Shown one piece after another: positions 11,681 to 59,074 of a stretch of 64,000 nucleotides of DNA (position 1 is its first letter; each line of letters opens with the position of its first letter). Made by a program: the position numbers and the translations under genes. The stretch spans positions 96,001 through 160,000 of the forward strand of contig CAXXET010000006.1 of the NCBI GenBank assembly GCA_963666115.2, written 5' to 3'. The DNA is from Dehalococcoidia bacterium. GTDB lineage: Bacteria > Chloroflexota > Dehalococcoidia > UBA6926. Below the pieces are notes generated by a model. The model was given only the letters and a program-made list of their open reading frames with translations. It was not told the origin of the DNA and made no database searches.

Positions 11681-11712
11681 TTAACCCCATGTCCCCCTGA
11701 GCGCCCATTCAT

Positions 11713-11737
11713 GTCATTCTGAGCGCAGCGAAGAATC
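11713..11737 (+). repeat. Repeat family B (GTCATTCTGAGCGCAGCGAAGAATC)
   Basis: Identical 25-mers at 13091, 48386, 51488 and 58135. Confidence 0.9.
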
Positions 11738-11765
11738 CCCCAACCCCCCGTGCTACCCTTAACCC

Positions 11766-12848
11766 ATGCAAGACCTAACCACCCGCCTCCTAAAAGGAGA
11801 CCTAACAGCCGCCCCCCGCATCCTAACCCTCCTCGAAAAAGGACACCCCCAAGCCAACGAAATCCTCACCCAACTGTCCGTCATTCCCGCAACCCCAGTC
11901 CGTCATTCCGGCGAAGGCCGGAATCCATCCGGCTCCCCCCCCTCCGAATCCCCCGCGACCCCAGTCCGTCATTCCGGCGAAAGCCGGAATCCATCCGGCT
12001 CCCCCCCCACGTCCCCCGCCCACCACATCGGCATCACAGGCCCCCCCGGCGCAGGCAAGAGCACCCTCGTCGAAGCCCTCACCAAGCTCCTCCGCCAACA
12101 AGACAAAACCGTCGGCGTCCTCGTCGTCGATCCCTCAAGCCCCTTCACCGGCGGCGCCATCCTCGGCGACCGCGTCCGCATGAGAGACCACTTCCTCGAC
12201 CCCGGCGTCTTCATCCGCAGCATGGCAACGCGAGGCGCGACAGGCGGCCTCTCCGCCATCGTCCCATCAGCCCTCCGCGTCCTCGATGCCGCGGGCCTCG
12301 ATGTCATCCTCGTCGAAACAGCAGGCGTCGGCCAGACGGAACTGGACATCATGAACACCGTAGACACCGTCGTCGTCACAGTAGTCCCCGAAGCGGGCGA
12401 TGCCATCCAGACAATGAAAGCCGGACTCCTGGAAATCGCCGATATCTTCGTCGTCAACAAGGCAGACCGCCAGGGCGCAAAGCGCATGGCGACTGACCTG
12501 GAAACAACAGCCCACCTCGGCAGCCGAGACATGGACTGGTGGACAATCCCCGTCCTCCAAACCCAGGCCACCCTCGGCGCAGGAGTAACAGACCTCCTAA
12601 ACGCCCTAACCAACCACTACAAAACCCTCGTCGACACCAACCGCCTGGAACTCCGCCGCGCCGCCCAAAGAAGAGCAGAACTCCAAACAGCCCTAAGAGA
12701 CCGCCTCCTACACCACCTGGACCAAGCCGAACACTCAACCCCCCTAACCAACATCATCCAACAAGTAGAATCCGGCCACCTCCCCCCCCAAACCGCCGCA
12801 GACCAAATCCTCGCGAACCTCGCCCCCCGTGCTAAACTATCCCCATGA
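11766..12848 (+). CDS. meaB: MeaB/ArgK-family GTPase (methylmalonyl-CoA mutase chaperone) with in-frame repeat insertion
   Basis: IGITGPPGAGKSTL, VDPSSPFTGGAILGDRVRM and VETAGVGQTE. Confidence 0.92.
   Translation: MQDLTTRLLKGDLTAAPRILTLLEKGHPQANEILTQLSVIPATPVRHSGEGRNPSGSPPSESPATPVRHSGESRNPSGSPPTSPAHHIGITGPPGAGKSTLVEALTKLLRQQDKTVGVLVVDPSSPFTGGAILGDRVRMRDHFLDPGVFIRSMATRGATGGLSAIVPSALRVLDAAGLDVILVETAGVGQTELDIMNTVDTVVVTVVPEAGDAIQTMKAGLLEIADIFVVNKADRQGAKRMATDLETTAHLGSRDMDWWTIPVLQTQATLGAGVTDLLNALTNHYKTLVDTNRLELRRAAQRRAELQTALRDRLLHHLDQAEHSTPLTNIIQQVESGHLPPQTAADQILANLAPRAKLSP
11880..12005 (+). repeat. Two tandem family-A repeats plus half copies, translated inside meaB
   Basis: 66-nt near-duplicate unit read twice as PATPVRHSGE[G/S]RNPSGSPP. 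Confidence 0.9.
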
Positions 12849-13081
12849 CAACCCAAACACCCACGCCCCCGCCAACAGACAACGAGCGCCTATCCCGCTT
12901 GGAGGGCATCGTCGAACAGATCGTCATACGCCTTGACGGCTTTGAACGACGCTTGGATGGCGTCGAGTCTCGCCTGGACTCCCTCCGCACCATGATGTTC
13001 ATGGGCTTCGGCTTCCTCTGGGCATCGACGATGGCAGGCTTCATAGCCATCTTCATCGCCATCCTCAACATCAACCCCTAG
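12845..13081 (+). CDS. Small coiled-coil protein with C-terminal transmembrane helix
   Basis: Heptads RLDGFER/RLDGVES, then a hydrophobic tail. Paralog at 1141. Confidence 0.75.
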   Translation: MTTQTPTPPPTDNERLSRLEGIVEQIVIRLDGFERRLDGVESRLDSLRTMMFMGFGFLWASTMAGFIAIFIAILNINP

Positions 13082-13090
13082 CCCACACCT

Positions 13091-13115
13091 GTCATTCTGA
13101 GCGCAGCGAAGAATC
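13091..13115 (+). repeat. Repeat family B
   Basis: Exact copy; supplies the stop codon of the - strand gene. Confidence 0.9.
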
Positions 13116-14270
13116 CACCCGCATAAACCGCAAAACATCCCCAACCTCCCCCTCGATCCCCGCGCCCATCCCGCCATTCCCGCGCTCCCCCTCCGTCATT
13201 CCCGCGAAAGCGGGAACCTCACCCCCAAACCACTCAAAAATAACCTCCGCCCGCCCCCCACCCCGCCGCCTCACCCCCCAAGTCCCCACCGCCAACCCAT
13301 CGACGATCACCACAGGCCGTATCATCCCCCCACCCGCATTCACCCGGGACACATCCTCCGCCGCCACCGCAAGCCCCCGCCCCCGATACCCCAACAAATA
13401 AGTATCAAACGCCCCCAACAACCGAACCCTCTTTTTCCCGCGAAAGCGGGAACCCAGTCCCCCGCCCCCGTCCCCCAACAACCACATCCCCTCCCCCCCA
13501 ACCTCAACCTCCACCAACTCCCCCTCAATCGCCCCCCACCCAGCCCGCGCATCCCGCAGCGAAATCCCCGCCCACACAGCAAAATCCCGCGCCGTCGACG
13601 GCCCGAACGCCCGCACATACCGCCCGGCCAGCCGCGCCAAGGCCTCCTCCCGGTCCAACACAGGCCGCTCAACCCCCGCCAGCCACGAATCCGCCGCCAC
13701 GAACGTCTCCGTCTTCCCGTCCACCAGCGGCCCGTGCGTCATCAACCCCAGGAACCCCGCGGACCGCACGACGTGATGCAGCCCCTGGTTCTCGACGGGT
13801 ATCCCATGCGGCGCGAGCCGCTCCGCGAGCTGCGCCCGCGTCAGAGGCCCCTCGGCGGTCAACGCATCCAGCGCAAGCGAATGCGCCCGTTCAAGCTTAG
13901 ACTCATCCAACCCCAGCTCAAGCCGCCGCCCCCGCCCCGACGAAAACGCGATAGGCCCCAAAAGCGATGTCATCCACCGGTGATCCTCCGATGGAATCAA
14001 GTGCAAAGTCCCCCGCATAACCCACGTCCGCACGACAGACCGCTCCTCGGCGATCATGTGATGCATGCTCGCAGCGCTAAGCCCGGAACTCCGGGCGCGA
14101 ATCTGCAGCGCCGCCGCATTCAAATCCTGCCCCTGCAACCCCCCCGCCCGAGCCACAACAGCGGCCGCAATCCCCGCGCCCCCCTCCAAATCCCCCGCGA
14201 AGGCGGGGGCCAACCCCTGCGCCAAAACACGCAGCCACCGAACCTCACCAGCAGAAAGAGAAACGGCCAT
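13092..14270 (-). CDS. AlkZ/YcaQ-like winged-helix DNA glycosylase family protein (HTH_42)
   Basis: GLQGQD, RTWVMRGTLHL, RYVRAFGPSTARDFAVWAG and RLLGAFDTYLLGY. Contains translated repeats. Confidence 0.88.
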   Translation of the reverse strand: MAVSLSAGEVRWLRVLAQGLAPAFAGDLEGGAGIAAAVVARAGGLQGQDLNAAALQIRARSSGLSAASMHHMIAEERSVVRTWVMRGTLHLIPSEDHRWMTSLLGPIAFSSGRGRRLELGLDESKLERAHSLALDALTAEGPLTRAQLAERLAPHGIPVENQGLHHVVRSAGFLGLMTHGPLVDGKTETFVAADSWLAGVERPVLDREEALARLAGRYVRAFGPSTARDFAVWAGISLRDARAGWGAIEGELVEVEVGGEGMWLLGDGGGGLGSRFRGKKRVRLLGAFDTYLLGYRGRGLAVAAEDVSRVNAGGGMIRPVVIVDGLAVGTWGVRRRGGGRAEVIFEWFGGEVPAFAGMTEGERGNGGMGAGIEGEVGDVLRFMRVDSSLRSE

Positions 14271-14279
14271 AGGGGAAAC

Positions 14280-14687
14280 TCAGGACAGCGAAATCGGCTC
14301 TAACTGGCCATCCTCGAGCACATCCAGAATGAAGGGAGGCGTCAAATACACAATGGCATCGAGAATGAGTTCAAATGCCCGCAAGAAGCACCGGACCTTT
14401 TCCCATAGCTGCTCTGAGCCTCCCCACAGGTAGAAGCATCGAATTCTGTAGTCGATGATGGCGGCTCGCTCTGAGGGCTCCAGGTGGTGCCTGCGGTCAT
14501 GCCCGATGATGATCCAGCCCCGCCGCCCAATCTCTGGCATCCATACTTCATCCGGGGTGTCCTGCGCGAAGTGATCACGGAGGAACTCGACTTCTATGGG
14601 GAGGCGCAGTCTGGCTAAGACCTCCGGCAGACGCTTTCCGACGTCTCGGTCAAAGAACAGTGTAGGCCGACTAGCGGGCGCGATCAT
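14280..14687 (-). CDS. PIN-like toxin (VapC45-type)
   Basis: LFFDRDVG, TPDEVWM..IG.RGWIII.HD and E..AI. Paired with a DUF433 gene. Confidence 0.8.
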   Translation of the reverse strand: MIAPASRPTLFFDRDVGKRLPEVLARLRLPIEVEFLRDHFAQDTPDEVWMPEIGRRGWIIIGHDRRHHLEPSERAAIIDYRIRCFYLWGGSEQLWEKVRCFLRAFELILDAIVYLTPPFILDVLEDGQLEPISLS

Positions 14688-15347
14688 TCAGACCGCAGCG
14701 TCATTGACGGCTTCAAACGCCAGAGCGTCCTTGACTTGCGCAGGACTCAGCACGAGGTCATCTTCAATATCCTCAAGCGATTCGCCTGCTTCATGGCGCC
14801 CCTTAATGATCGCGGTTAGCACGCCGCCGGACGATGGCGCCCCAAACCGCATCCGGGGATCGATGATCACGCTGCTGCCGCGACCTCTCGGATACCACCG
14901 CACCGCCAGGCCATCCTCGTAATCAAACTCCTCAAACCGCTCCGCTAGGCAGCCGTGCCAATCCATGGAACCGGCATCCCCCATCAAGTCAGCCGCGTAG
15001 CTCTTCCACCGCGCGTCCACAAAGGGATATTCCAAATCGAACGCGTTCGCCGCTCGCTCATGCGCCGCGCGAATCTGGCGGAGCGAAACCCCCGCGTTCC
15101 GGAGAGTCGCCACGAACGCCACCTCAATCAACTCGAGATATGAGAGCGACGGCAGCTTGTGACCGCGACCGCGACCCCGCCCGTTCGACGCCGCTGCAAG
15201 CGAACTGTAGGACTGGCGCCTCCATGCGCTGACGGTCTGCGCGCTCGTGCCCGCATAGCGGGCTGCCTCGCCCGTAGGGTAACCGGGAAGATGTATGCGG
15301 CCCCGCCACCCCTCGGTAGGGCGCGCCCCCGCCAAAGACACCATCAC
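14688..15347 (-). CDS. DUF433 antitoxin (VapB45-like)
   Basis: N-terminal HTH (EAARYAG), LSYLELIE, and IIDPRMRFGAP...AGESLEDIEDDLVLSPAQVKDALAFE. Confidence 0.8.
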   Translation of the reverse strand: MMVSLAGARPTEGWRGRIHLPGYPTGEAARYAGTSAQTVSAWRRQSYSSLAAASNGRGRGRGHKLPSLSYLELIEVAFVATLRNAGVSLRQIRAAHERAANAFDLEYPFVDARWKSYAADLMGDAGSMDWHGCLAERFEEFDYEDGLAVRWYPRGRGSSVIIDPRMRFGAPSSGGVLTAIIKGRHEAGESLEDIEDDLVLSPAQVKDALAFEAVNDAAV

Positions 15348-15390
15348 TCACTCTCCATCCTCATAGCCCCACCAGTATACCGCCCCCTCC

Positions 15391-15416
15391 GTCATTCCCG
15401 CGAAAGCGGGAACCTA
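15391..15416 (+). repeat. Repeat family A
   Basis: GTCATTCCCGCGAAAGCGGGAACCTA. Confidence 0.9.
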
Positions 15417-16844
15417 GAACCCCATCTCCCCCCGCGCCACGTAAAACTCCCGCAAACGCCGTATCGCCCGCGCCGCGTCCTGGAACGACGGGAACACCGC
15501 GATCCCCTTCTCCGCCACCTTGATACGGAACTCCGCCAGCGCCGCCTCATCCTGGTTCCACGTCGCGATCACCCCGAACGGCTTGTCCGTCGACTCCTGG
15601 AACTCCTTGAACATGTCGATCAGGTCGTCCATCCCCTGGCCCTGACGCTCAAGGCGCCGCGAGATGAACCCGATGCTCGCCTCGATCACCACGATGTCCG
15701 TATTCGGATCAGCCGCCAGCGCGTCCAGCATCTCCCGCCCGCGTTCGATGCTCGTCAGCGAGCCGGACACGTCCAGCGGGTTCTTGTAGCTGCCCCCCAC
15801 CACCGTCACGATGGGCTGCAGGATGTCATAGCTCTCCTGCGTCAGGTCGGGCACCGTCAGCCCCTCCCGCCCGAACGCGTCGGACACCAGCACGGACTGC
15901 CCGCCCGTCTGCGCCACAATCCCCATCCGGGTCCCCGTGAACGGCTTCAGGAAGTGCAGCGCCTTGAACGCGTCCATCAGCTCGTCCTGCGTGTCCACCC
16001 GGATCGCCCCCGTCTGCCGGATCATCGCGTCCCACAGCGCCATGTCCGACGCCAGGTGCCCCGTGTGCGACGCCGCGGCCCGCGCCCCCTCCTGCGTCTG
16101 CCCGCCCTTCCAGATGATCACCGGCTTCCGCGCCGCAACGTCGCGCAGCGCCTCGAAGAACTTGCGCCCGTCGCGCGTCCCCTCGACATACATCCCAATC
16201 GACTTGACCTCCGGGTCCTCCCCCAGGTACTCAAGCCAATCCCCCTGGTCGACGGAAATGCTGTTGCCCATGCTGATCGACTTCAACGGATACAGGCCGT
16301 TGATGCGCGCGCGAATGACGAAGCTGGTGGCGTGCGTGCCGGAGTTCGACATGAACCCGATGTCGCCGCCCTCGCCGATCCACTGGTCCTGCGAGTTCCG
16401 GATGCCCGCCTTGGAGTGGTACAGCGCCATGCAGTTCGGGCCGACGAGGTTGAAGTTCGCCTCGCTCGTCATCTTCGTCAGCGCCTCCTGGAGCTGGACG
16501 CCCTGCTCCTCGCCCGTCTCCGCGAAGCCGGACGTGAACAGCGCCGCCGCCCCGGCCCCCGCGCTGATCGCGTCCGCCACGATGCGCGGCGCGACAGGCC
16601 GCGGCACCGCCACAATCACATAGTCAACCTGCCCCGGCACGGCCTCCAGGCTCGGGTAATTCTCGAATCCCATCTCAAGGATGCCCGGGATCTCGTTCTC
16701 ATCGATCTGCACGGACACAACCTTCGCCTTCGCGTCGCGGACGCTCTTCAGCCACATATAGTCCGTGATCTTCTTGTCGCCCACCACCGCAATCAACTCC
16801 GGGTTGAATGCCCGATCCAAATTAGCCTTCCGTACCGCATCCAT
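15414..16844 (-). CDS. NDP-forming acyl-CoA synthetase, CoA-binding (alpha) subunit
   Basis: LFTSGFAETG, LVGPNC, WKGGQT.EGARAAASHTGHLA and NPLD. Confidence 0.88.
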   Translation of the reverse strand: MDAVRKANLDRAFNPELIAVVGDKKITDYMWLKSVRDAKAKVVSVQIDENEIPGILEMGFENYPSLEAVPGQVDYVIVAVPRPVAPRIVADAISAGAGAAALFTSGFAETGEEQGVQLQEALTKMTSEANFNLVGPNCMALYHSKAGIRNSQDQWIGEGGDIGFMSNSGTHATSFVIRARINGLYPLKSISMGNSISVDQGDWLEYLGEDPEVKSIGMYVEGTRDGRKFFEALRDVAARKPVIIWKGGQTQEGARAAASHTGHLASDMALWDAMIRQTGAIRVDTQDELMDAFKALHFLKPFTGTRMGIVAQTGGQSVLVSDAFGREGLTVPDLTQESYDILQPIVTVVGGSYKNPLDVSGSLTSIERGREMLDALAADPNTDIVVIEASIGFISRRLERQGQGMDDLIDMFKEFQESTDKPFGVIATWNQDEAALAEFRIKVAEKGIAVFPSFQDAARAIRRLREFYVARGEMGF

Positions 16845-16858
16845 CCTGTGCGCCCCCC

Positions 16859-16905
16859 TTTTTCCCGCGAAACCCCTCCGTCATTCCCGCGAAAGCGGGA
16901 ATCTA
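16859..16905 (+). repeat. Half copy plus full copy of repeat family A
   Basis: TTTTTCCCGCGAAA-CCCCTCC-GTCATTCCCGCGAAAGCGGGAATCTA. Confidence 0.85.
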
Positions 16906-17625
16906 CCCCTCCGCAGTAAGCACTATCCGCGCATCGACAGCGACTGACCCATCCGCGTAAGCAAGCACCGGATTCAAGTCCATCTCCGCAACCCCCGGCG
17001 TCTCGCTCACAAACGCCGAAACCGCCTCGATTACCCCCTCCAGCGCGCCCAGGTCAACGGCCCGCGTCGCCCGGTGCCCCGTCAGCAGCGGATACCCCTT
17101 GATCTCGCGGATGATCGCCCCCGCGTCCCTCGTCGTCAGCGGAGCGATCCGAAACGCCACGTCCTGCAGCACCTCAACCGCGATGCCGCCCAGCCCGAAC
17201 ATGATCACCGGCCCAAACTGGCGGTCGCGCGTCATGCCCACGATGACCTCGACGCCTCCTGCGGGCGCTTGCGGCTGCACCGTCACGCCGTCGATGGCCG
17301 CGTTCGGCTCCGCCGCCGTCGCGCTTGCGACGATCTCCTCGAAAGCCGCCCGCGCGGCGTCCGCGTCCGCGATGCCGAGCCGCACGCCGCCAACATCGCT
17401 CTTGTGCGTAATCTCCCTGGATGACACCTTCATCACGACGGGAAACCCGACGCTTTCCGCCGCCGCCGCAGCCTCATCCGCAGACGAAGCCGTCGTCGGC
17501 ATTGTCACCCGGATGCCCTGCTCCTGCAGGATCGCCTTGGATTCCTCCTCCGTCAGGATGAGACGCCCCTCGGCACGCGCGCGAGCCGCCGTCTCCCCAA
17601 AAAGTGTGGACGCTGACACAGTCAC
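16903..17625 (-). CDS. NDP-forming acyl-CoA synthetase, ATP-grasp (beta) subunit
   Basis: GFPVVMKV.S.EITHKSDVGGV, FGPVIMFGLGGI.VE and EMDLNPV...AVDAR. Start uncertain. Confidence 0.88.
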   Translation of the reverse strand: MTVSASTLFGETAARARAEGRLILTEEESKAILQEQGIRVTMPTTASSADEAAAAAESVGFPVVMKVSSREITHKSDVGGVRLGIADADAARAAFEEIVASATAAEPNAAIDGVTVQPQAPAGGVEVIVGMTRDRQFGPVIMFGLGGIAVEVLQDVAFRIAPLTTRDAGAIIREIKGYPLLTGHRATRAVDLGALEGVIEAVSAFVSETPGVAEMDLNPVLAYADGSVAVDARIVLTAEG

Positions 17626-17713
17626 AAACACCCCCCGCCTATTCCCCAAATTGCACTTGCTAGTGTATACGAATCGAACGCCAAACGCGCCCGTTCCCGC
17701 GTGCCGGCCCCCC

Positions 17714-18652
17714 CTACAGCCGTGACACGCCCACCAGCGTCGCGTTCACGATGAAGCGGTGAGAATACGTCGTCGCCGGCGCGCACGTCACCAGTGACAG
17801 CGTCGGCCCGTCCGAGTAATCGAAGACGTCCACGTCCTCCGGCAGCACAACCGTCGTATCCGTGGCCCGGTACAGAAACACGTCCCCACCCGCCGTCACG
17901 ATGATGTCCACGATCTTGCCCCGCCGCAGCAGCGGCGCAATTTCATCCAGCCGCGCAAACACCGACCCCTCCCCGGCAATCGGCGAATTGACGTGGCCTG
18001 ACATCACCGTGTTGCCAACCTCCCCCGGCGTCGCCGAGCCGATGTGGAACCCCACCGCGTGATCCGCCGTCTCCCACTCGCTCGTCTCGCCGTCCCAGAC
18101 AATGCTGAGATCGACAACCGTCGACTCCAGCCCGATGGCCGGAATGATGATGTGGTGCGGCCGCGGCTCCTCCCCATACGTCGAAACCAAATCATCCTCC
18201 GTGACCGCCCGAAAATTCTCCCGGATCGGTCCAAGCAGCGTTCCATCGTCTGCGCGGGCCACATAGTGATTGAGGTCACGAAGTATGCCGTACTCGTCAT
18301 AGGGGCTTTCGACTGCTTCAGAAGCATCGTTGGTCTCCTCAGATTCGGGCAACGGCGTAGGCGCCGTGGCAACCGGCAGCGCCGAATCGACGTACACGAT
18401 AGACGTTGCCGCTGCCGTAGGCATGGCAGGGGTCTGGATGGCCAGGTCTCGCGACAAATCCTCCCGCGTAAGCCCAGTCTCAGCCTGCGTAACAGTCAAA
18501 TCATCAAGCCCCGCCTGCCCGTAAGCCCCAACGATGAAATACCCGCCCGCGAACAAGACCAACCCAACCCCGATAGCCACAATGAATACGCCCAGGACAA
18601 GCATCGGCCGCACAAAGACAAGCGCCCAAAGCCCAATCAGCCGGTCCATCAT
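17714..18652 (-). CDS. Sortase family protein
   Basis: N-terminal TM, PGEVGNTVMSGH, catalytic LSLVTC and HRFIV. Confidence 0.88.
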   Translation of the reverse strand: MMDRLIGLWALVFVRPMLVLGVFIVAIGVGLVLFAGGYFIVGAYGQAGLDDLTVTQAETGLTREDLSRDLAIQTPAMPTAAATSIVYVDSALPVATAPTPLPESEETNDASEAVESPYDEYGILRDLNHYVARADDGTLLGPIRENFRAVTEDDLVSTYGEEPRPHHIIIPAIGLESTVVDLSIVWDGETSEWETADHAVGFHIGSATPGEVGNTVMSGHVNSPIAGEGSVFARLDEIAPLLRRGKIVDIIVTAGGDVFLYRATDTTVVLPEDVDVFDYSDGPTLSLVTCAPATTYSHRFIVNATLVGVSRL

Positions 18653-18660
18653 CCGACCGC

Positions 18661-19275
18661 CTACCCGAGTATCTCCGCGATTCTCTCATCGAGAACCGCG
18701 CCGGTCACCACGCCCGCCCACCGCGTATGCACCGTCCCGTCCCGCTCGATGAAGAACGTGATCGGCAAGCCGCCCACGCCGTAATCGATGGTCGCCTCCC
18801 CGTCCGGATCGGTCACCATCACGTAGCCGTCATCCACGGGAACATTGAACTCCTCGATGAACGCCAGCGCGTCCTCATTCGTGTCCTGGATCGCCACGCC
18901 AATGAACCGGACGCCCTCGCCCGTGTAACGCTCGTGCGCCTCCACCAGGTGCGGCATTTCTGTGCGGCACGGCACGCACCAGGATGCCCAAAAATTCACA
19001 ACCAACGGCGACCCCTCAAAATCGGACAGGCTAACGTCTCCCGCCCCGTTCAACTGCGAGAGCGTGAACGAAGGCGCCGCGATGCTCGTGCGCGTCGTGG
19101 TATCCATCGGCATCGATTCCCGCGTCATCAGGCTGTACGCCAACAGCCCGACAAACGCCGCCATCACGACAACCGCCACCGAAACAACAACAACCCCCGG
19201 CCGCCGCTGCTCCGCAGCGCCGACCCCGGGAACCGTATCCGAACCGTCCGCTCTCTCGCCAGCGTCCTCAACCAT
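18661..19275 (-). CDS. TlpA/ResA-family membrane thiol-disulfide oxidoreductase
   Basis: TM helix, VVNFWASWCVPCRTE and YGVGGLPITFFI. Confidence 0.9.
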   Translation of the reverse strand: MVEDAGERADGSDTVPGVGAAEQRRPGVVVVSVAVVVMAAFVGLLAYSLMTRESMPMDTTTRTSIAAPSFTLSQLNGAGDVSLSDFEGSPLVVNFWASWCVPCRTEMPHLVEAHERYTGEGVRFIGVAIQDTNEDALAFIEEFNVPVDDGYVMVTDPDGEATIDYGVGGLPITFFIERDGTVHTRWAGVVTGAVLDERIAEILG

Positions 19276-19338
19276 AACCTAACCATCCCCGCGCTTCCCT
19301 GATTATACCCGTTGGCGGTCCAGCGCGAGCCGAGGAAT

Positions 19339-24715: not shown

Positions 24716-24760
24716 GTCATTCCCACACCCACCCGTCATTCCCGCGAAAGCGGGAATCCA
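24716..24760 (+). repeat. Half copy plus full copy of repeat family A
   Basis: GTCATTCCC-ACACCCACCC-GTCATTCCCGCGAAAGCGGGAATCCA. Confidence 0.88.
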
Positions 24761-25301: not shown

Positions 25302-25404
25302 CCCTCCCCTTCATGGGGGAGGACCGGGGTGGGGTTTAACCGCTCATCCTGAGCCTGTCGAAGGATATGAGCGGCACCGTCATTCCCGCGAAAGCGGGAA
25401 TCTA
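25302..25404 (+). repeat. Cluster of repeats D, C and A directly before the helicase
   Basis: CCCTCCCC..GGGGGGAGG..GGGGTGGGG, then CCGCTCATCCTGAGCCTGTCGAAGGA, then GTCATTCCCGCGAAAGCGGGAATCTA. Confidence 0.8.
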
Positions 25405-48359: not shown

Positions 48360-48455
48360 GCCCCCACTGTCATTCTGCCCCCACTGTCATTCTGAGCGCA
48401 GCGAAGAATCCATCCCCTCTCCCTCAGGGTCAGGGAGAGGGCTAGGGTGAGGGGG
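48360..48455 (+). repeat. Half B, full B and D repeats next to tRNA-Sec
   Basis: GCCCCCACTGTCATTCT duplicated, then B at 48386 and D at 48415. Confidence 0.85.
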
Positions 48456-50938: not shown

Positions 50939-50948
50939 GAGGACAACC

Positions 50949-51437: not shown

Positions 51438-51447
51438 GCGCTATTTC

Positions 51448-51512
51448 CCCTCCCCACTCTGTGGGGGAGGGCTAAGGTGGGCGAGGTGTCATTCTGAGCG
51501 CAGCGAAGAATC
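51448..51512 (+). repeat. Repeats D and B
   Basis: CCCTCCCC..GGGGGAGGGCTAAGGTGGG, then an exact B copy at 51488. Confidence 0.8.
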
Positions 51513-51540
51513 CAAAGTCACGATTGAGCAATCCAGCGCT

Positions 51541-53076
51541 ATGACCCAACCAGCCGCCACCCTCGTCCGCGGCCGCCGCGTCCTCACCCGCGCAGAGCAC
51601 GACGGCAGCTATACCCTCCTCAACGATGCCGCCGTCGCCATAGCCCCGGACGGCTCCATCATCGAGGCCGCCCCCTACGATGATCTCCGTTCCCGCCACC
51701 CCGATGCGGACGTCATCGGCAACGGCTCCCACTTCGTTCTCCCCGGCCTCGTCAACGCCCACCACCACGGGCGCGGCGTCTCCTACCTCCAACTCGGCCA
51801 GCCCGACGGCGCGCTTGAAACCTGGCTGAATCTCGCGTGGGGACGCAAGCCCATGGACTCATACCTCATGGGTCTCTACACCCTCATGCAGCAGCTCAGG
51901 TCCGGCACCACCGCCGTTATGTTCAACCAGGCCGGCCCCCTTGCCGAGGCCGAGGGCACCCTCACCGCGTTCCGTGAAGTGGGCGTCCGCACCGCATTCT
52001 CCATCGGATTCCGCTCCCAGTGCTTCCTGATCTACGGCGACGACGAGGAGTTCCTTGCCGGCCTGCCGGATGATCTCTCGCAGACCGCCCGCGCCGTCGT
52101 CGAAGCCTCCCGCGTCGACTTCGAGGACAACCTCAACCTCGTCCTTGACCTCCATGAGCGGTATCAGAAGCCGGACCCGATGGCCGTCCGTATTCTCCTC
52201 AGCCCGTCAGGCTACCACTGGGCCGATGAAAACACCCTCAGCCGCATCGTGGAAACTGCCCGCGACAACGACATGGGCATCCACACCCACGTCCTTGAAA
52301 CCGTCTACCAGCGCCTGTACGCCAACCGGACGACGGGCCAGTCCCCCGTGCAGCGCCTCGCAGACCTCGGCATGACCGGCCCCGGCGTCTCCTACGCCCA
52401 CTGCGTGTGGGTCACGGAGGACGATATCCGCATCCTCGCCGATACCGGCACGTCGGTCAGCCACAACCCCAGCTCCAACCTGCGCCTCCACAGCGGCATC
52501 GCCCCCGTCGGCGCCATGCTGGACGCCGGCGTCAACGTCGGACTCGGAACCGACAGCGTCGGCATCAACGACGATGATGACATGCTCCAGGAAATCGGCC
52601 TCAGCCAGCGACTCCACCGCGCCCCGGGCCTGGACAACCGCCGTGTCACGCCCGGCGAGTTGCTCTACATGGCGACGCTCGGCGGCGCGAAAGCCCTGAC
52701 TCTGGACGACCACATTGGCAGCCTCGAACCCGGCAAGCGCGCCGATATCGTCATGCTCAACTGGGACCGCGTCTCCTACCCGTATCTGGACAGCGAACTC
52801 GATCCCCTTGAAGTCCTCGTCTCACGCGCACGCGGACGAGACGTGCGAACCGTCCTGATCGATGGCCGCGTCGTCTACGACAACGGCGAATACCCCACCC
52901 TCAACGTCCCCGCCATCACCATGCGAATCCAGGAAGCCTTGGCAGGAGGCCCGCCCCCGGACGTCCTAAAGCGCCGCCAAGCCGCCCAGGCCCTCGACCC
53001 TCACATCCGAGCCTACTACCGAAACTGGCAACTCCCCGAAACCCCCCAATACACCCTCCGCAACGCCGCCCGATAG
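51541..53076 (+). CDS. Amidohydrolase (guanine/MTA-SAH deaminase, AtzA-like family)
   Basis: PGLVNAHHH, IHTHVLET, AHCVW, HNPSSNLRL.SG, LGTD and GSLEPGKRAD. Confidence 0.88.
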   Translation: MTQPAATLVRGRRVLTRAEHDGSYTLLNDAAVAIAPDGSIIEAAPYDDLRSRHPDADVIGNGSHFVLPGLVNAHHHGRGVSYLQLGQPDGALETWLNLAWGRKPMDSYLMGLYTLMQQLRSGTTAVMFNQAGPLAEAEGTLTAFREVGVRTAFSIGFRSQCFLIYGDDEEFLAGLPDDLSQTARAVVEASRVDFEDNLNLVLDLHERYQKPDPMAVRILLSPSGYHWADENTLSRIVETARDNDMGIHTHVLETVYQRLYANRTTGQSPVQRLADLGMTGPGVSYAHCVWVTEDDIRILADTGTSVSHNPSSNLRLHSGIAPVGAMLDAGVNVGLGTDSVGINDDDDMLQEIGLSQRLHRAPGLDNRRVTPGELLYMATLGGAKALTLDDHIGSLEPGKRADIVMLNWDRVSYPYLDSELDPLEVLVSRARGRDVRTVLIDGRVVYDNGEYPTLNVPAITMRIQEALAGGPPPDVLKRRQAAQALDPHIRAYYRNWQLPETPQYTLRNAAR

Positions 53077-53080
53077 CCCC

Positions 53081-53170
53081 GTCATTCCGGCGTAGGCCGG
53101 AATCCATCGCGTGGCCCGCAGGGCCACATCCCGCACCCCTCCCCCCGAATCCCCCGCGCAGGCGGGGGCC
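53081..53170 (+). repeat. Repeats A and E between convergent genes
   Basis: GTCATTCCGGCGTAGGCCGGAATCCA and GAATCCCCCGCGCAGGCGGGGGCC. Confidence 0.85.
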
Positions 53171-55062
53171 TACCCCCCGGCCGTAATCGTAACCGTGTCA
53201 GCCTTGATGTACTTCCACGCGTCGCTCACCTTGACGCCGATGAACAGTTTCACGCGGTACGTCGTCCCCGCAGTCAGCCCGGTTATCTGGTGGCTCGACG
53301 CCGACTTGCTGTAGAAAACGACGTTCTGCTTGCCCGTCCAATTTGAGGGCGCCTGGCCCGTATCCTCCACCCAGCGCACTTCGTAGTACTTGAAAACCTG
53401 GTCGTCGGAAAAGTCGTAGCTCCACGTCACAGCGCCGCTCGCGGTGACGGCGAAAGTCGGCGCGGCGGGTGGGACAGGCGTGGCAGTGGGCGGAATGGGC
53501 GTGGCGGTGGGTGGAACAGGTGTCGGCGCGGGCGCCGTGCCGTCATGGATGCGCAGCATCAGCGTGTCGCCATTCTCCCACGGCTGCGACGATACGCTCC
53601 AACTCAGTGTATCCTTCGCGCTGTCCACCGTCGCGTTGGCGACGCTCAGAGACAGCGACGCCGTGCCGTCCAACCCGATGACGTCCACAACCTGCCCCGC
53701 AAGCGCATCATCCGGTGTGACCCCAAGTGTCACCGTCCCGGATTCCCACGTCATCCCACTAATCGTCGCCGCCGCGCCGTCAGCGCCTGTGAACGTGTTG
53801 GGCTTCAGCACACCGTTCGTGGCATTCGCCCCGATAGCCGTGCCAATGGTCACCGGATCAAAGAACGCCTCGTGGAGGGTGCCGGTGGGCGCGGTAACGG
53901 TCAGGAACAACTCTTCCCGCTTCTTCTCCAGGTCGGGCATTCCGTCGCAGATGATGTATATCTTTGGACGAGGGGTGAAATAGGTCTTGTACTCTCCTGC
54001 GGGCAGGGGGCGCATCGTGTCCAGAACCACCGGCCATCTCGTTCTGAACAAGGCCGCGTCCCTGCCTGTAAGTTGGACATCGTCGGCATCAGGCGGCGGG
54101 GTTGCCGGAAACCCGCTATACGCAGAATCCGTGAACGCCATCGTTCCTCCGGCCAACCCGGAGCCGAGGGTGGCATCAAAGCGTTTGTAATAGTAACCTT
54201 GGCCGCCGATCTCGACTATCCTGGCCAGCTCATACTGTGCCTCACGTGCCTGTTCGGTCTTCCTGTAAAGGCAGTCCTTGTACGCCTCGGAGCCGCCTCC
54301 TGCTGCGATTTCGCGGTCATTGGCCGCAATCTTCGCCTTTAGGGCGGATAGCGTGATGGTTGGCGTGGTCTCGGACTGACCTGACACCCCAGATGCCCCA
54401 TCGGTGGCTGCGGGCGAATCCAGCAGGAAGCTCTGCGTATCCGAGCTGCCGGATGCTCCGCCGGCCTCGGACGAAGCGGCGGGCAGCCATCGCTTGTCCC
54501 ACCGGCTGGCTATCGTATAGTAGTCCTCCCAAGGCTCATCGAAGTATAACCCTCCCAGCCGATACCGATTCGCTTGACTGGTGCTGGGCAGTTCCGGATG
54601 GGAGTTTTCGAGAAAGAGTATCGCTTCCCTGCTATCCCACTGCGTGTCCCGCCTGCCCTTCAGGGCCTCTGCCCGCGTGACGGCGCTCCCGCTCGTACTA
54701 AAGGTATCCAGACCGTCCCAAGCCACCGCCACAAGCTCGCTGCTACCACTCCCCCTCAGGTACTCCAACACCCGGAACCGGTAGTCCAGGGCGGCGACGT
54801 AGTCCGTCTCTCCTGTCTGCTGCTCCGCCACCGCAGTCACTGAGAGCAACTCCACCCGGGCGATAACATCCGCCCACGCTATCGTCTCCTCGACGGGGGC
54901 CACACCGTAGTAATCAGAGCCTGAGCCAAGCATGTCAGTCGGCGCCTGTTGAGTCGGCGCCTGTTCCGTTTGGGAGTTGCAGCCCGCCAAAACGGCCGCC
55001 AACAAAATAAGCCCCACCGCGCGTATCATCGTCTCCGCCCCATCACGCCTCGTCCATGTCAT
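53170..55062 (-). CDS. Secreted lipoprotein with Pro/Thr linker and C-terminal fibronectin type III-like domain
   Basis: Lipobox LAGC, PTATP repeats, and YEVRW...ITGLTAGTTYRV. Confidence 0.75.
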   Translation of the reverse strand: MTWTRRDGAETMIRAVGLILLAAVLAGCNSQTEQAPTQQAPTDMLGSGSDYYGVAPVEETIAWADVIARVELLSVTAVAEQQTGETDYVAALDYRFRVLEYLRGSGSSELVAVAWDGLDTFSTSGSAVTRAEALKGRRDTQWDSREAILFLENSHPELPSTSQANRYRLGGLYFDEPWEDYYTIASRWDKRWLPAASSEAGGASGSSDTQSFLLDSPAATDGASGVSGQSETTPTITLSALKAKIAANDREIAAGGGSEAYKDCLYRKTEQAREAQYELARIVEIGGQGYYYKRFDATLGSGLAGGTMAFTDSAYSGFPATPPPDADDVQLTGRDAALFRTRWPVVLDTMRPLPAGEYKTYFTPRPKIYIICDGMPDLEKKREELFLTVTAPTGTLHEAFFDPVTIGTAIGANATNGVLKPNTFTGADGAAATISGMTWESGTVTLGVTPDDALAGQVVDVIGLDGTASLSLSVANATVDSAKDTLSWSVSSQPWENGDTLMLRIHDGTAPAPTPVPPTATPIPPTATPVPPAAPTFAVTASGAVTWSYDFSDDQVFKYYEVRWVEDTGQAPSNWTGKQNVVFYSKSASSHQITGLTAGTTYRVKLFIGVKVSDAWKYIKADTVTITAGG

Positions 55063-55145
55063 CCAATCTTGCCTGTAACGCCCACGTCATGCATGGCAGC
55101 AGTTCTACCCCGCGCCCGCCCGCCTGTCAACTCGGCCGCCTCCCC

Positions 55146-55201
55146 TTTTCCCCGCAAAACCGGGAATCCAGCCCCCCGCTCACCCTGAGCCTGTCGAAGG
55201 G
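55146..55201 (+). repeat. Degenerate A and C repeats
   Basis: TTTTCCCCGCAAAACCGGGAATCCA (same variant at 58043) and CCGCTCACCCTGAGCCTGTCGAAGGG. Confidence 0.8.
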
Positions 55202-55266
55202 TGCCCCCACCTCACCCCGCCCAATGCGCTATTATCCCCTAAGCGTGCCGTATCAACAGGGGGGTA

Positions 55267-57972
55267 ATGATGCGCGGCATTGTGTGGGTCACACTGACCG
55301 TTGGCGCCCTCGCCTTTGCACTCGCCGCCCTGACCGCCTGCCGGGCCCCTGACCCCACGCCCACTCCCACCCCAGCGCCAACACCGCCACCCACCCCCAC
55401 CCCAACGCCCACGTCCACCGAGCAGCTCAACCAACAGGCAGCCTGGCTCGCCAACCCCCCGGACGCCGCCCACTGGATCGCCAGAACCGCCATCCGTCGC
55501 ATCGCCGTGGAAGATGAAACCCTGGGGCAGCAGGTTGCCGCTCTGCCATGGAGCGTCGATGGCATAACCGCAGATGAGGCCGGCGTGCTGGACGATCTCT
55601 CGTGGCTGCTACAACAAGACCCCGCCATCGCCGCAGCCGTGCTGGACTTCTCATGGATGTCCGCAACCGCGAACATCACCGCAGATGACCGCCGCGCGCT
55701 CCGCGCAGTCCGCGCCGCCGTCGACGCGGATAGCGCCCTCGGCGCAACCCTAGCCTCCTACCCATGGTTCGAAACGCCCGTCACCCCCGAAGGTGCCGAC
55801 GCACTGGAAACCCTAGCCGAACTCGTCGCCCCGGACTTCCAGTCGCAGACCGTCACCGGCATCGGCGCAATGCGGCTCCGGCCTCCATCACCCACCGAAC
55901 CCCCACACCTCGAATTCGCGCAAGAACTAGCGGAGATCAACTGGCTCCAGGACGAAATAACCGGGGTCGAACCAGAGGCGCTCAACGCCTGGGCCGAGTT
56001 GATTCAAGTCGAAGAGCCGAGCGGAGACGCGGCCCTGGAAACAGTGTGGCGCTACAACTGGACGCGTGACGACGCGACGCAAGCAGAAGTAAAGTTCATC
56101 AGTGACCTAAGCGAAGTGGCTGCATCAACCGATGATCGCAATGCAGACGCGCTCGAGACAATCATGGCGTATGGCTGGGTGAGGAACGGCATCGCTCAAT
56201 CCGAAAGCGGGTGGATACTGCGTTACCAACCCCTGCTGGAGGATGCCGGCCCGGAGGACGCGGACGCGCTGCCCCTCATCCTGGACTATGCGTGGGTGAG
56301 GGACGGGCTCCGAGCGCAAGAGGTGGGCCATTTGTCGTCGCTGCGTTCCATCTTCCGCTACAGTTCCGCTGAGAACGCTCCGGCAATCCGTACGGTCTTC
56401 GGGTACCCGTGGTTGGCGGATTCGATCACGTCGGATGAAATTGCGGTGCTGAGAGACATCGCGAGTGCGCTGTCTGCGACCGAGACCGTGGGCGCGGCCC
56501 ACGTGAACAAACTCCTTGGTTACGGATGGGTCTCAGACGACATCACCGCTGACGAGTCAGCCGGTTTCGGCCTGCTGTCAGACACTCTGCGGATGCTTGG
56601 GCGGGATTACCCGGAGGCCGCGCAGTCCGTCCTCGCGTATGAGTGGGTGCAGGATGACCTGGTGGATTCCGACCTGGTTTCGCTGCGCGCGCTCTTTTCA
56701 GTCTTTAGGCATCCTAGAGACCAGACGGGCGACTTCACTGTGGCGCTAACCGCCCGGCCATGGCTCCAGGACGGCCTTGACGAGGATGAGTTGGCCCTGC
56801 TTGGACTCTTCGATCATTCCCTGAGATCAGTCCCTGCCGGCACAATCATGCCCCCTGCGCTTGCCGCCTACCCGTGGCTGGATGGCGGCATTTCAAGTCG
56901 GGAAGAGCAGTGGCTTATCGACTTCCTGCAGGTACTGGCTGCCGGTGTTCTGCCTGACGGCTTCGACGCGGTCCAGTTCTCGGAATTGCCGTGGTTCCAG
57001 GACGGCATCGATGAATTCGAGGCATCGGCAACATCACACCTCGCGTGGGACTCCACGCTCCGAGACCCGGACATCCTCAGCAAGGAGTGGTTCCAGGACG
57101 GCCTGTCTGAGCAAGACATGGTGCTCCTGAGGGCCCTCGTCGACGCCAAGTGGCGCTCTGAACACCACTATCCGGACTTGCTGGATTCGCCCTACATAGC
57201 CAACAAAACACTCACATTGCTGCACAGGGAGTTGGAGGTCTATGTTGTCGGCTCCACGCAGTTCAAGGCCAATGACCCGACGATGGGTCTGATTGAGGAC
57301 ATTGCCCTCAAACTCGAAGAGTTCATGGCGCTGCCGTTCCCGCGAGACAACATCGTCATCTTCTACTGGCAGCCTGCCTGGAGCGAGGGGCAGACGCCCC
57401 GGTTCGGTCTCGGCCACGCCGGATTGGCATTCTTTACCTTGGCGCCCCCGCACCACAACCGCAATTACCACCTGGCCGTCTTCCATGAGATGGCTCACGC
57501 ATACTGGGGCGGCCACACCGGCGCGCCGCCTTGGTGGAATGAAGGAGCCGCCGGTTTCCTGCCGGACTACGCCCGCGATGCCCTCGGCCAGGAAACCCTG
57601 GACGAACGGCGCGCCGACCTGCTTGAGGACACGGAGCGCGAGTGCTGGAGTTGGCGCATCGCCAACATCTCTGAGTACTACCACATACAAGAGACGAACC
57701 GCCCACTCGCGGAACGCCGCAGCATCTGCATCTACGCCTTTGGCGAGCTCTTCCTCATGGAGATGTACCTCCTCCTCGGACACGACGCCGTCTCCACTGC
57801 CATGCGCCAACTCTACGTGGACGCCCGCGACTCAGACTGGCAAGACCCGATTACAGACCAAAAAATCTACGATGCCTTCCTAGCCAACACCCCCCAGGAC
57901 AAACTCGAAGACTTCCACAACCTCTTCGACGACATCCACGGCGGCGCCAAAGTCACCCTCCAGGACTCCTAA
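55267..57972 (+). CDS. Lipoprotein with ~14 W-x-x-D-G/D repeats and a C-terminal gluzincin-like metallopeptidase domain
   Basis: Lipobox LTAC, PT linker, repeats such as LPWFQDGIDEFE, and HEMAH...WWNEGAA. Confidence 0.8.
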   Translation: MMRGIVWVTLTVGALAFALAALTACRAPDPTPTPTPAPTPPPTPTPTPTSTEQLNQQAAWLANPPDAAHWIARTAIRRIAVEDETLGQQVAALPWSVDGITADEAGVLDDLSWLLQQDPAIAAAVLDFSWMSATANITADDRRALRAVRAAVDADSALGATLASYPWFETPVTPEGADALETLAELVAPDFQSQTVTGIGAMRLRPPSPTEPPHLEFAQELAEINWLQDEITGVEPEALNAWAELIQVEEPSGDAALETVWRYNWTRDDATQAEVKFISDLSEVAASTDDRNADALETIMAYGWVRNGIAQSESGWILRYQPLLEDAGPEDADALPLILDYAWVRDGLRAQEVGHLSSLRSIFRYSSAENAPAIRTVFGYPWLADSITSDEIAVLRDIASALSATETVGAAHVNKLLGYGWVSDDITADESAGFGLLSDTLRMLGRDYPEAAQSVLAYEWVQDDLVDSDLVSLRALFSVFRHPRDQTGDFTVALTARPWLQDGLDEDELALLGLFDHSLRSVPAGTIMPPALAAYPWLDGGISSREEQWLIDFLQVLAAGVLPDGFDAVQFSELPWFQDGIDEFEASATSHLAWDSTLRDPDILSKEWFQDGLSEQDMVLLRALVDAKWRSEHHYPDLLDSPYIANKTLTLLHRELEVYVVGSTQFKANDPTMGLIEDIALKLEEFMALPFPRDNIVIFYWQPAWSEGQTPRFGLGHAGLAFFTLAPPHHNRNYHLAVFHEMAHAYWGGHTGAPPWWNEGAAGFLPDYARDALGQETLDERRADLLEDTERECWSWRIANISEYYHIQETNRPLAERRSICIYAFGELFLMEMYLLLGHDAVSTAMRQLYVDARDSDWQDPITDQKIYDAFLANTPQDKLEDFHNLFDDIHGGAKVTLQDS

Positions 57973-57977
57973 CCCTC

Positions 57978-58159
57978 CCGCTCACCCTAAGCACCACCCC
58001 CGTTCACCCTGAGCCTGTCGAAGGGTGAACCCCCACCCTCCCCTTTTCCCCGCAAAACCGGGAATCCAGCCCTCCCCCCCCCCGTCATTCCGGCGAAAGC
58101 CGGAATCCATCGGGCACCGTCATCCTGACGATCTGTCATTCTGAGCGCAGCGAAGAATC
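57978..58159 (+). repeat. Dense cluster: half C, C, A, A, half B, B
   Basis: Copies at 57978, 58000, 58043, 58084, 58119 and 58135. Confidence 0.88.
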
Positions 58160-58169
58160 CACCATCGCC

Positions 58170-58811
58170 CTAGGCGCCAGTGACCCACACATAAATACTG
58201 GATGCTAACAGCGTAGGCGCCAATATGCTCCATAGCAGAGCCCCCATGAATGGCCAAAAATGCCGTCGAGGCAATGCCGTCACTCTTCCTGGCAGATAAA
58301 TGTCATTCCACTCCCTGGGGCCGGACACCCATCGTCTTGCATTATTCCACATAACAAACTCTATTAGGACGGCGACTCCACCGAACAATGCAAAAAATAG
58401 TGAAAGGGCCATCATATCACCGCGGTCTGCATAACTGGAAAGGATGATCGTGACCGCAACAAAAATCCCATAGGATACAGTGAAGAGAGCCAATGGACAT
58501 ATGAACCACACGATGATAATCAATCCATATGATATCTCGGTTAGACGATTGCTTGAACGCCACCCTAGGAAATTGGCTATGAGGAAACACCATGGTAGAA
58601 AAAGGGCAATTGACGCAGCAGTGCCGCCTCCAAATGCCTTGAAGACAGGCATACCCTCCCTGTGAGCCAGCCATGCAGTGATTGCGCCCGCTGCGGGAGA
58701 CCAGATCATCCCAACTACCGCCAGGATAAGGATTGGTGAAAGGAGGAGTAGAGGCACCATGAAAAACCTTAGGAGATCAAGCAGCATCACTTTGCTCCAC
58801 AATCTGGACAA
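58170..58811 (-). CDS. Hypothetical multi-pass membrane protein, low GC; start uncertain
   Basis: 5-6 hydrophobic segments. A short upstream hydrophobic ORF in another frame may be its frameshifted N-terminus. Confidence 0.6.
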   Translation of the reverse strand: MSRLWSKVMLLDLLRFFMVPLLLLSPILILAVVGMIWSPAAGAITAWLAHREGMPVFKAFGGGTAASIALFLPWCFLIANFLGWRSSNRLTEISYGLIIIVWFICPLALFTVSYGIFVAVTIILSSYADRGDMMALSLFFALFGGVAVLIEFVMWNNARRWVSGPREWNDIYLPGRVTALPRRHFWPFMGALLWSILAPTLLASSIYVWVTGA

Positions 58812-59020
58812 GGCAGGCGATTAAGCCGAACAACGCGAGAATTGCCACAACCCACGCCGCTTTCCCAGGGAAAGCCGTCAGCGCTCTCCGACGTCCGCCG
58901 CGTTCTCGCATCACATCCTGGGACGACCTGATCGGTGACTCCCTCGTCCCCTATGCCGACACTTGTACCCCTCCCTCCGCAGTTCTGTCAAGCACCCACC
59001 CCCCCCTCACCCCGCCACCC

Positions 59021-59074
59021 CCCGTTCACCCTGACACCCCCCCCCGTTCACCCTGAGCCTGTCGAAGGGTGAAC
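59021..59074 (+). repeat. Half C and full C repeat
   Basis: CCCGTTCACCCTGA-CACCCCCCC-CCGTTCACCCTGAGCCTGTCGAAGGGTGAAC. Confidence 0.88.

Follow-up and report, generated by a model that had tools for sequence, protein, structure and literature searches.

Truncated 5′ half copies lie on one side of CGTC-tagged hairpin repeats in a sponge-associated Chloroflexota genome

The characterisation of Ssn nucleases dates from as recently as 2025 (Chenal et al. 2025, PMC11893778). According to the text of that paper, the 94-amino-acid (aa) GIY-YIG nuclease SsnA binds the NTS motif CGTCATTCCCGCGMAVGCGGGAATCYRG and related motifs (SRMs) as single-stranded DNA (ssDNA) only, cuts the tagged strand alone a few nucleotides upstream of the tag and leaves the reverse strand uncut. 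By our own reading of the oligonucleotide numbering given there, the Neisseria cut lies 5 nt 5′ of GTC. The same text describes Ssn enzymes of ∼95 aa tested in Neisseria and three other species, ssnA genes that are typically flanked by the motif (NTS-ssnA-NTS), and in vitro cleavage of NTS halves split over two oligonucleotides, and its authors state that the role of Ssn outside Neisseria and the multiplication of the repeats are open. Here, we analyze hairpin repeats in a 64,000-nt stretch (hereafter, the window; C6:96001-160000) of the genome of a Dehalococcoidia bacterium (GCA_963666115.2, hereafter G000; 2.07 Mb, 9 contigs), where full repeat copies are often immediately preceded by truncated copies of their own 5′ half. 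We refer to this arrangement as a stutter; its mirror image, a right arm left downstream, does not exceed background.

The second group with which these repeats invite comparison is the CGTC-tagged class of repetitive extragenic palindromes (REPs). In the text of Di Nocera et al. (2013, PMC3733652), CGTC-1 REPs have a CGTC, TGTC or CCTC tag, an 8-bp stem starting with AT, a 4-nt loop and a CCA tail, and include the neisserial dRS3 and the Rickettsia RPE-6 elements. CGTC-tagged REPs are said there to "apparently lack a dedicated transposase," their head-to-head dimers predominate with head-to-tail ones negligible, and Chloroflexi are listed for GTAG, not CGTC, repeats.

To count repeats, we called a full copy at no more than three mismatches to the hairpin of family A, B, C or E; this census replaced k-mer censuses (k = 11 and k = 14), which were swamped by GC-rich coding k-mers. 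G000 contains 260 full hairpin copies (A, 91; B, 90; E, 54; C, 25), with a general layout of pyrimidine-rich leader, unpaired C/TGTC tag, hairpin and CCA-like tail. Family A has the sequence GTCATTCCCGC-GAAA-GCGGGAAT, or with its flanks the consensus CCCCCTCCGTC-ATTCCCGC-GAAA-GCGGGAAT-CCAG, the tag taking the form CCGTC before ATTCCCGC. Family E reads GTCATTCCGGC-GAAG/GAAA/GTAG-GCCGGAAT, and families B (GTCATTCTGAGCGCAGCGAAGAATC) and C (GTTCACCCTGAGCCTGTCGAAGGGTGAAC) form long interrupted stems with 11-nt interiors.

Twenty family A sites in G000 fit the published degenerate NTS consensus exactly. Families A and E show the CGTC-1 traits, namely an unpaired CGTC (or TGTC/CCTC) tag, an 8-bp AT-start stem, a 4-nt loop and a CCA-like tail. 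The tag of family B is TGTC; neither B nor C has the 4-nt loop, and the two share with NTS/SRM only the tag, an AT- or TC-start stem and a C after the palindrome. Judged by their sequences, families A and E are very likely CGTC-tagged palindromic repeats, that is, NTS/SRM motifs of the Ssn system; for B and C we propose the same identity with lower confidence. An earlier note on the window, made from its letters alone, had seen in the half-copy architecture the best candidate for an undescribed system. The system is already described, as CGTC-tagged REPs and as the NTS/SRM motifs of the Ssn family (PMC11893778, in the text available to us), and G000 encodes a homologue with flanking repeats. 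The window extends this system by new members and to a new host group.

That homologue is the one small GIY-YIG gene of G000, a 98-aa open reading frame (ORF) at C4:200673-200966 with a PF01541 match over residues 8–79 (E = 5e-16) and no other domain. Stuttered E-type copies flank it on both sides in the same orientation, with 8–9 half units downstream, which is the published NTS-ssnA-NTS architecture. Homologues of the protein measure 87–138 aa and all carry PF01541 only, and searches with it gave nothing above the NCBIfam cut-off and no PDB match. Its nearest named relatives are ∼98-aa "GIY-YIG nuclease family proteins" of Pseudoxanthomonas with 60–68% identity. The Chloroflexota protein is far closer to these gammaproteobacterial proteins (P0020, P0025, P0035 and others) than the host phyla are to each other, and an identity of this level across phyla suggests horizontal spread of the ssn element.

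At this locus (L026, G000:C4:199194-202409; positions 1320–2040), ssn sits in a composite with a C-type hairpin, half units, an E-type hairpin and a second hairpin (GTGGCCC-N4-GGGCCAC) on each side, and among the units of the downstream array are five decayed halves, 20 nt long and identical to one another (GTCATCCCCA + CCCCACCCCC). Repeats and ssn-like genes also co-occur outside the genus, both being present in G032 and G033, and G339 has a stutter array 40 nt ahead of its ssn gene. G033, from another family of the same class, has 27 ssn protein matches on many contigs, many with internal stops, along with 58 exact A-type repeats; by its sequence, this genome looks like the site of a burst of the ssn element followed by decay.

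Compared with the Ssn system, the repeats of G000 share the fit of family A to the NTS consensus, a hairpin that has an orientation and a conserved tag ahead of it, a high copy number in a symbiont and a single-domain GIY-YIG gene of ∼95–98 aa with repeats on both sides. They differ in their host, a sponge-associated Chloroflexota genus for which no natural-transformation context is known here, in the coexistence of four families, two of them (B and C) with long interrupted stems, in the conserved C-rich leader, and in the one-sided half-copy stutter and 92% strand bias described below. With CGTC-1 REPs, as characterised in the text cited above, they have in common the tag, the 8-bp AT-start stem, the 4-nt loop, the CCA tail, some intragenic copies and the lack of a REP-associated tyrosine transposase (RAYT); unlike those REPs, the copies here are co-oriented singletons or head-to-tail arrays instead of head-to-head dimers, with 20 of 20 window copies on one strand.

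GTAG REPs and REPINs with RAYT resemble the present repeats in being short extragenic tagged hairpins that flank a nuclease gene and in acting through ssDNA. However, G000 has no Y1_Tnp gene, the tag is different and there are no inverted doublets. To our knowledge, GIY-YIG nucleases also belong to another superfamily than RAYT and form no covalent intermediate. No match to PF01797 (Y1 transposase/RAYT) was found in G000, a genome scored 100% complete, and the control search was positive in 6 of 14 control genomes. We rejected membership in the GTAG REP/RAYT class because the tag is CGTC and the PF01797 match is absent from G000. A CRISPR array was likewise rejected, as the units are half repeats and the apparent spacers are 5–11-nt leader copies that are often identical within an array. 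Insertion of IS200/IS605 elements into the lagging-strand template (PMC6006769, in the text available to us) is similar in its recognition of ssDNA hairpins and its replication-linked strand and orientation bias. The elements here are instead 25–30 nt long, with no transposase or TnpB, and their bias may come from insertion or from selection.

Within G000, at least one half unit lies upstream of 68 of the 260 full copies (one unit at 57 copies, two at 8, three at 1 and four at 2). Of these 84 units, 72 have a period within 18–22 nt. A right-arm repeat downstream was seen at 4 of the 260 copies. A genome-wide count of orphan arms as 11-mers with one mismatch was dropped, as chance hits dominated it, and was replaced by tests beside full copies. 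For this partner test, 251 copies were used, the 9 close to contig ends being excluded, with control windows 300–1200 nt away. An orphan left arm was present upstream of 67 copies, and an orphan right arm downstream of 7, against a background of 6.6–6.9 from the control windows. For the other two combinations, we counted 6 copies with a right arm upstream and 19 with a left arm downstream, nearly all of the latter being part of the next copy. The contrast between left and right orphans is highly significant (Fisher p = 3e-15).

These counts extend what the earlier note had described at about ten loci of the window, namely a half copy immediately before a full one, with no orphan right arm downstream and with the same behavior in different repeat families. 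All ten loci are present, the dearth of right arms holds genome-wide (7/251 observed and 6.9 expected), and all four families (A, B, C and E) have stutters.

The ∼8 nt before the tag are conserved across copies, with C at 63–75% in five positions, followed by T, C and C. Since this C-rich leader stands before every full copy, the apparent linker between a half and a full copy is the leader of the next unit. The linkers reported in the earlier note are thus indeed C-rich in G000, but they are the repeat's conserved leader and not a property of a linker, and in other phyla they are often T-rich. The repeated unit of ∼20 nt consists of the leader, the CGTC tag and the left arm and ends at the loop, so that the duplicated segment runs from ∼7–10 nt upstream of GTC to the last left-arm base.

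For 14 of 24 listed family A pairs, half and full copy match up to the last base of the stem (nt 11) and no farther; in family B, the match ends at the center (nt 13–14) in 7 of 26 listed pairs and earlier in the remainder. Breaks therefore pile up at the last stem base, in agreement with the original impression that the truncated arm stops at or before the hairpin center. Junction microhomology is 0–2 nt only, and slippage between direct repeats as the first event is therefore unsupported. We also considered unequal joining of two breaks, one upstream of the hairpin and one at the loop, but set it aside because its reciprocal product, an orphan loop plus right arm, is not enriched.

The window contains 20 full copies, all on the + strand, as are all features listed here. 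The ten half + full pairs lie at, or within 1–3 nt of, the positions first assigned to them, with periods of 16–23 nt, and 7 of the 10 pass a strict test of at most one mismatch in the first 7 nt. The three looser pairs are a degenerate B-type half, a diverged copy within a 66-bp duplication, and a unit that retains left arm and loop. The first of these, at 11691–11712 (GTCCCCCTGAGCGC + leader), matches its full B-type copy (11713–11737) at 11 of the first 20 nt with a period of 22. Next, an A-type half unit (GTCATTCCCGC + leader) at 11880–11901 precedes an E-type copy (11902–11924), both within the reading frame of MeaB. The diverged half unit at 11946–11967 and the in-frame E-type copy at 11968–11990 make up the second copy of the 66-bp tandem duplication (half + full). 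Family A supplies three further pairs: a half unit (GCCATTCCCGCG + leader) at 13173–13194 before the NTS-like full copy at 13195–13217, the degenerate unit at 16859–16879, in which left arm and loop are kept (TTCCCGCGAAA) and the leader follows, before 16880–16902, and a half unit (GTCATTCCC + leader) at 24716–24734 before 24735–24757.

Farther to the right, the B-type half unit at 48369–48385 (GTCATTCTG + leader), in which the private leader CCCCCACT is duplicated, precedes the full copy at 48386–48410, and another (GTCATCCTGA + leader) at 58119–58134 precedes 58135–58159. The two C-type half units, at 57980–58001 (GCTCACCCTAAGC + leader) and 59024–59045 (GTTCACCCTGA + leader), are followed by full copies at 58002–58030 and 59046–59074. 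Full copies without a half are found for family A at 1416–1438, 15391–15413 and 25379–25401; for family B at 13091–13115 and 51488–51512; for family C at 1076–1104, 3941–3969 and 55178–55206; and for family E at 53081–53103 and 58084–58106.

To see how far the stutter extends, we counted its core pattern in other genomes. Among the 22 genomes of the genus, GTCATTC-N9-17-GTCATTC has 720 matches in 21 genomes, and the mirror pattern GGAATCY-N9-17-GGAATCY has 32, which look like chance matches. The exact A-type stutter gave 92 matches in 19 of 401 Chloroflexota genomes, and the five stutter-richest of these, picked for their richness, contain 46 left versus 0 mirror matches. Mirror counts cover the genus and these five hand-picked genomes; the survey of all species was one-sided and selected for an intact 11-nt arm and a 16–22-nt period, with shorter arms and longer periods outside its scope. 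It returned at least 112 stutter loci, many in chromosome-level records. The matches listed include Proteobacteria (several classes), Dehalococcoidia, Nitrospirales, Omnitrophota, Zixiibacteriota and Planctomycetota, as well as Acidobacteriota, Bacteroidia, Clostridia, Patescibacteria and others.

At the all-species loci listed, 102 of 143 pattern pairs precede a full hairpin, and arrays reach 5–6 identical units with a lineage- or locus-specific spacer. At the listed loci from other phyla, spacers are 76% C+T and often T-rich, and of 102 arrays, 71 break where stem and loop meet and 14 more a single base into the loop. In G000, neither equally frequent right-arm fragments nor random breakpoints were seen, two of the outcomes that the earlier note had named as speaking against its claim.

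We then asked whether hairpins in general behave in this way. For perfect hairpins of G000 and G004 with a stem of at least 8 bp and a loop of 3–8 nt, we scored an exact 8-nt arm repeat at a distance of 12–26 nt on one side. It was found at 24 of 205 SRM-type hairpins but at 2 of 596 others, which are mostly single-copy and imperfectly matched, suggesting that the effect is specific to SRM repeats rather than to hairpins generically.

Several observations bear on whether the half units arose in place. Private leader variants are duplicated together with the arm (e.g., ATTCACTCC, CCACTGTCC and CAAACTTCC), and leaders are identical in 10 of 62 arrays. The divergence between leaders of neighboring units is 0.375 per site, compared to 0.565 for unrelated copies. 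Left-arm positions that were not used for detection differ at 0.226 per site, compared to the 0.375 of the variable leader part.

The MeaB GTPase gene (window 11766–12848, + strand) allows the same site to be followed through related genomes. In G000, it carries the half + full + half + full E-type repeats in frame at 11880–12010, before the P-loop, and its ORF stays open over 360 aa with the Pfam MeaB match starting at residue 82. An in-frame element is present in five species: as a single full copy with no half in G019, G008 and G007, as the half + 66-bp duplication in G000, and as a stutter of another stem family in G021. The insertion is absent from G004, G011, G015 and G002.

The intergenic site between the upstream terminator and the MeaB start is empty in G015 (L012) and G007 (L013), holds half + full in G011 and G021, and has a B-type copy in G000. 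At the same site in G019 (L002) and G008 (L004), a ∼100-aa GIY-YIG gene lies between stuttered repeats, each then followed by a second hairpin (TACGGCGCGCAGCGCCGTC). The site looks like a hot spot for elements.

Comparison of orthologous loci, which the earlier note had recommended, thus reveals empty, unstuttered full-copy and stuttered states at the MeaB loci. Its suggestion that a new copy is inserted into an old one fits poorly with the duplication of private leaders and with a MeaB element that has halves in G000 and none in G019, G008 and G007. We conclude, with good confidence, that the stutter probably arises where an existing copy has its 5′ module duplicated locally in tandem.

The orientation of the repeats is strongly biased. 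The tagged strand coincides with the locally C-rich strand for 238 of 260 copies in G000 and 98 of 104 in G004 (binomial p = 6e-47), and repeat density increases with |skew| from 0.58 to 2.74 per 10 kb, ∼five-fold. In single genes of the window, GC skew reaches −0.41 and AT skew +0.34, with a sharp sign switch at the right end of the window (C6 ∼160000). As Pfam-confirmed genes on both strands have the same skew sign, the skew is regional and not transcriptional. It is also patchy, with several sign changes per contig in G000 and many switches even in the closed genome G004, and does not follow a simple two-replichore pattern. In neither genome does dnaA lie at a skew switch, and the tagged strand may be the leading or the lagging one. 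The 22 copies on the "wrong" strand have upstream left halves in 5 cases and a downstream right repeat in 1, although most of them lie where the skew is near zero, making this a weak test. If copies with a cleavable strand that is frequently single-stranded are eliminated, the tagged strand would come to lie on the locally C- and A-rich strand.

Within the texts searched, neither the one-sided stutter and its wide occurrence nor the strand bias seems to have been reported. No description of half-copy stutters was found in the open-access literature and the texts of PMC11893778 and PMC3733652 that were searched. The main text of PMC11893778 never uses "tandem," "lagging" or "leading strand," and its supplements do not contain "tandem," "half," "partial" or "lagging," with "truncated" just in unrelated gene names; the text of PMC3733652 contains neither "half" nor "truncated."

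On balance, we favor, with moderate confidence, the explanation that these are Ssn repeats whose 5′ module is duplicated through an Ssn-linked nick-and-resynthesis error. The nick-and-resynthesis route as the origin of the stutter is, taken by itself, a tentative proposal. The tagged strand would become single-stranded, fold and be nicked by Ssn upstream of the hairpin. Synthesis from the 3′ end would then run through leader and left arm, with displacement of the old 5′ end, and come to a halt at the loop; there, the old left arm, now displaced, can snap back onto its right arm. If the old flap were retained and not removed, the segment from nick to loop would be present twice, and once two units exist, ordinary slippage could expand the array. 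Just left halves would be duplicable because one strand is cut, on its 5′ side alone.

The closest likeness to the stutter in way of working is found in flap- or hairpin-mediated repeat expansion and quasipalindrome template switching, in which a structure-forming strand and a displaced or misaligned end produce a short tandem gain. In contrast to flap and hairpin expansion, the gain here is confined to one arm, to a fixed length of ∼20 nt and to one repeat superfamily. Each unit could then be an in vivo scar of Ssn self-cleavage, left by one cycle of nick, resynthesis and flap failure, with co-orientation resulting from the loss of cleavable copies that are often single-stranded; this, too, is a conjecture that we regard as possible. 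Of the polarised mechanism proposed in the earlier note (nicking or stalling, then re-priming), the polar, hairpin-centered architecture is real and the mechanism itself may be correct. A nick within the hairpin, as pictured there, does not agree with the known nuclease, which according to the text of PMC11893778 cuts upstream of it.

Several findings weigh against this explanation. We find ssn in just 12 of 21 genus relatives. The closed relative G004 (1,991,504 bp) has no small GIY-YIG gene, its sole Pfam match lying in a 651-aa frame that is presumably UvrC, and yet 27 of its 104 copies (26%, the same as in G000) are stuttered, with 1 carrying a right-arm repeat. G021 is the richest in stutters (151 matches) and has no match to the ssn protein query. 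Judging from these two genomes, stutters could date far back or form independently of Ssn. The unit has its left boundary at −7 to −10, compared to the Neisseria cut at −5, which may not be the cut of this homologue, and the period of ∼20 nt is constant across families with different arm lengths, which a fixed distance from cut to tag does not obviously predict. Furthermore, A-type halves precede E-type full copies in 4 of 15 E arrays read, and such hybrid arrays fit copying from another donor, or decay, better than simple local duplication. In some other genomes (L185, L170 and L204, among the loci listed), a larger multi-copy unit contains the half copy, suggesting that halves can also spread with the element.

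The stutters of G004 would be expected if no Ssn were involved and the polymerase at work on the template of the tagged strand, aborting its unwinding of a stable hairpin, let the hairpin re-zip so that the nascent end re-primes ∼20 nt back. The one-sidedness would then come solely from a fixed orientation relative to some replication-linked asymmetry, as 92–94% of copies do have one orientation relative to local skew; breaks lie at or before the loop and never clearly past it, and arrays of up to 5–9 identical units resemble ordinary slippage expansion. Even so, we consider generic slippage somewhat doubtful: arm repeats are nearly confined to SRM hairpins (24/205, compared to 2/596 elsewhere), microhomology is 0–2 nt, a template hairpin should stall synthesis at its base and not at the loop, and "wrong"-strand copies are still left-sided (5/22 and 1/22), if weakly so given their mostly near-zero skew. 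The hybrid arrays, for their part, are better accommodated if halves are made while an element is copied into a site, abortive 3′-truncated donor copies being laid down before the complete one by a logic like that of target-primed elements. Such copying would also account for the extra DNA of G011, which begins directly with a half copy when set against the empty site of G015 and G007, and for a Nitrospirales chromosome in which half, spacer, full copy and shared downstream sequence recur at several loci. We nevertheless think it unlikely, as 10 of 62 arrays repeat a private leader specific to their locus, neighboring leaders are more alike than unrelated ones, the orthologous MeaB element occurs with and without halves, and no polymerase or integrase is associated with the element. 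We also know of no GIY-YIG enzyme that joins DNA.

Whatever their origin, halves might be kept because they are useful: each first-half module (cut region, tag and left arm) could pair with the single right arm, giving alternative Ssn registers or DNA/RNA structures. The lower divergence of left arms than of leaders (0.226 and 0.375 per site) points in this direction, as does the in vitro cutting of split NTS halves reported in the text of PMC11893778, but the difference is modest and many halves, such as the GTCATCCCCA units, are decayed. This renders retention a distinctly improbable reading. An assembly artefact at hairpins, raised in the earlier note as a possible undoing of its claim, is next to impossible. 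Many repeats do sit at contig ends in fragmented relatives, and the Logan contigs (marine and sponge metagenomes, ≤0.15 of sampled words) are short pieces of relatives, none of which spans a stutter plus unique flanks. However, the architecture is found in 21 of 22 genus genomes, eight of them listed as single contigs, in closed G004 and in closed, chromosome-level records of other phyla, and in frame within the conserved MeaB gene.

A footprint that is polar, defined in length and specific to one kind of repeat provides a testable handle on what a nuclease or a hairpin does to chromosomal DNA in vivo. If the self-cleavage reading is true, SRM arrays in more than 20 bacterial groups would be a readable record of self-cleavage, and the unit length would predict the cut site of each homologue, a help in selecting Ssn enzymes as ssDNA tools. 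The repeats would also spread and diversify via this repair route and not through a transposase. The strand bias hints that an ssDNA nuclease with targets in its own genome comes at a cost. If plain slippage is responsible, a practical annotation rule still results: such short insertions, which disrupt ORFs or stay in frame, are common in metagenome-assembled genomes, as are the contig breaks to which they lead.

Two composites of families recur in G000. In one, a B copy is followed by the spacer CAAAGCCTCAATTGTGC and a C copy (e.g., C3:57532, C4:197323(-) and C6:4193); in the other, found at 5 loci, an E copy is followed by a B copy with a 34-nt period. Therefore, families also travel, or are kept, as fixed pairs. 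In runs X1–X4 (sponge/marine metagenome assemblies), summed contig depth over the repeats at window 11884–12011 and 13164–13227 is hundreds to tens of thousands, compared to 0–50 for flanking genes, which indicates repeats common to many members of those communities. Elsewhere in the window, a 1405-aa ORF at 7410–11624 (+) has no Pfam match at E ≤ 1e-5, and the other strand has an open frame of 1324 aa; judging from the GC pattern over codon positions, the gene is likely the + frame.

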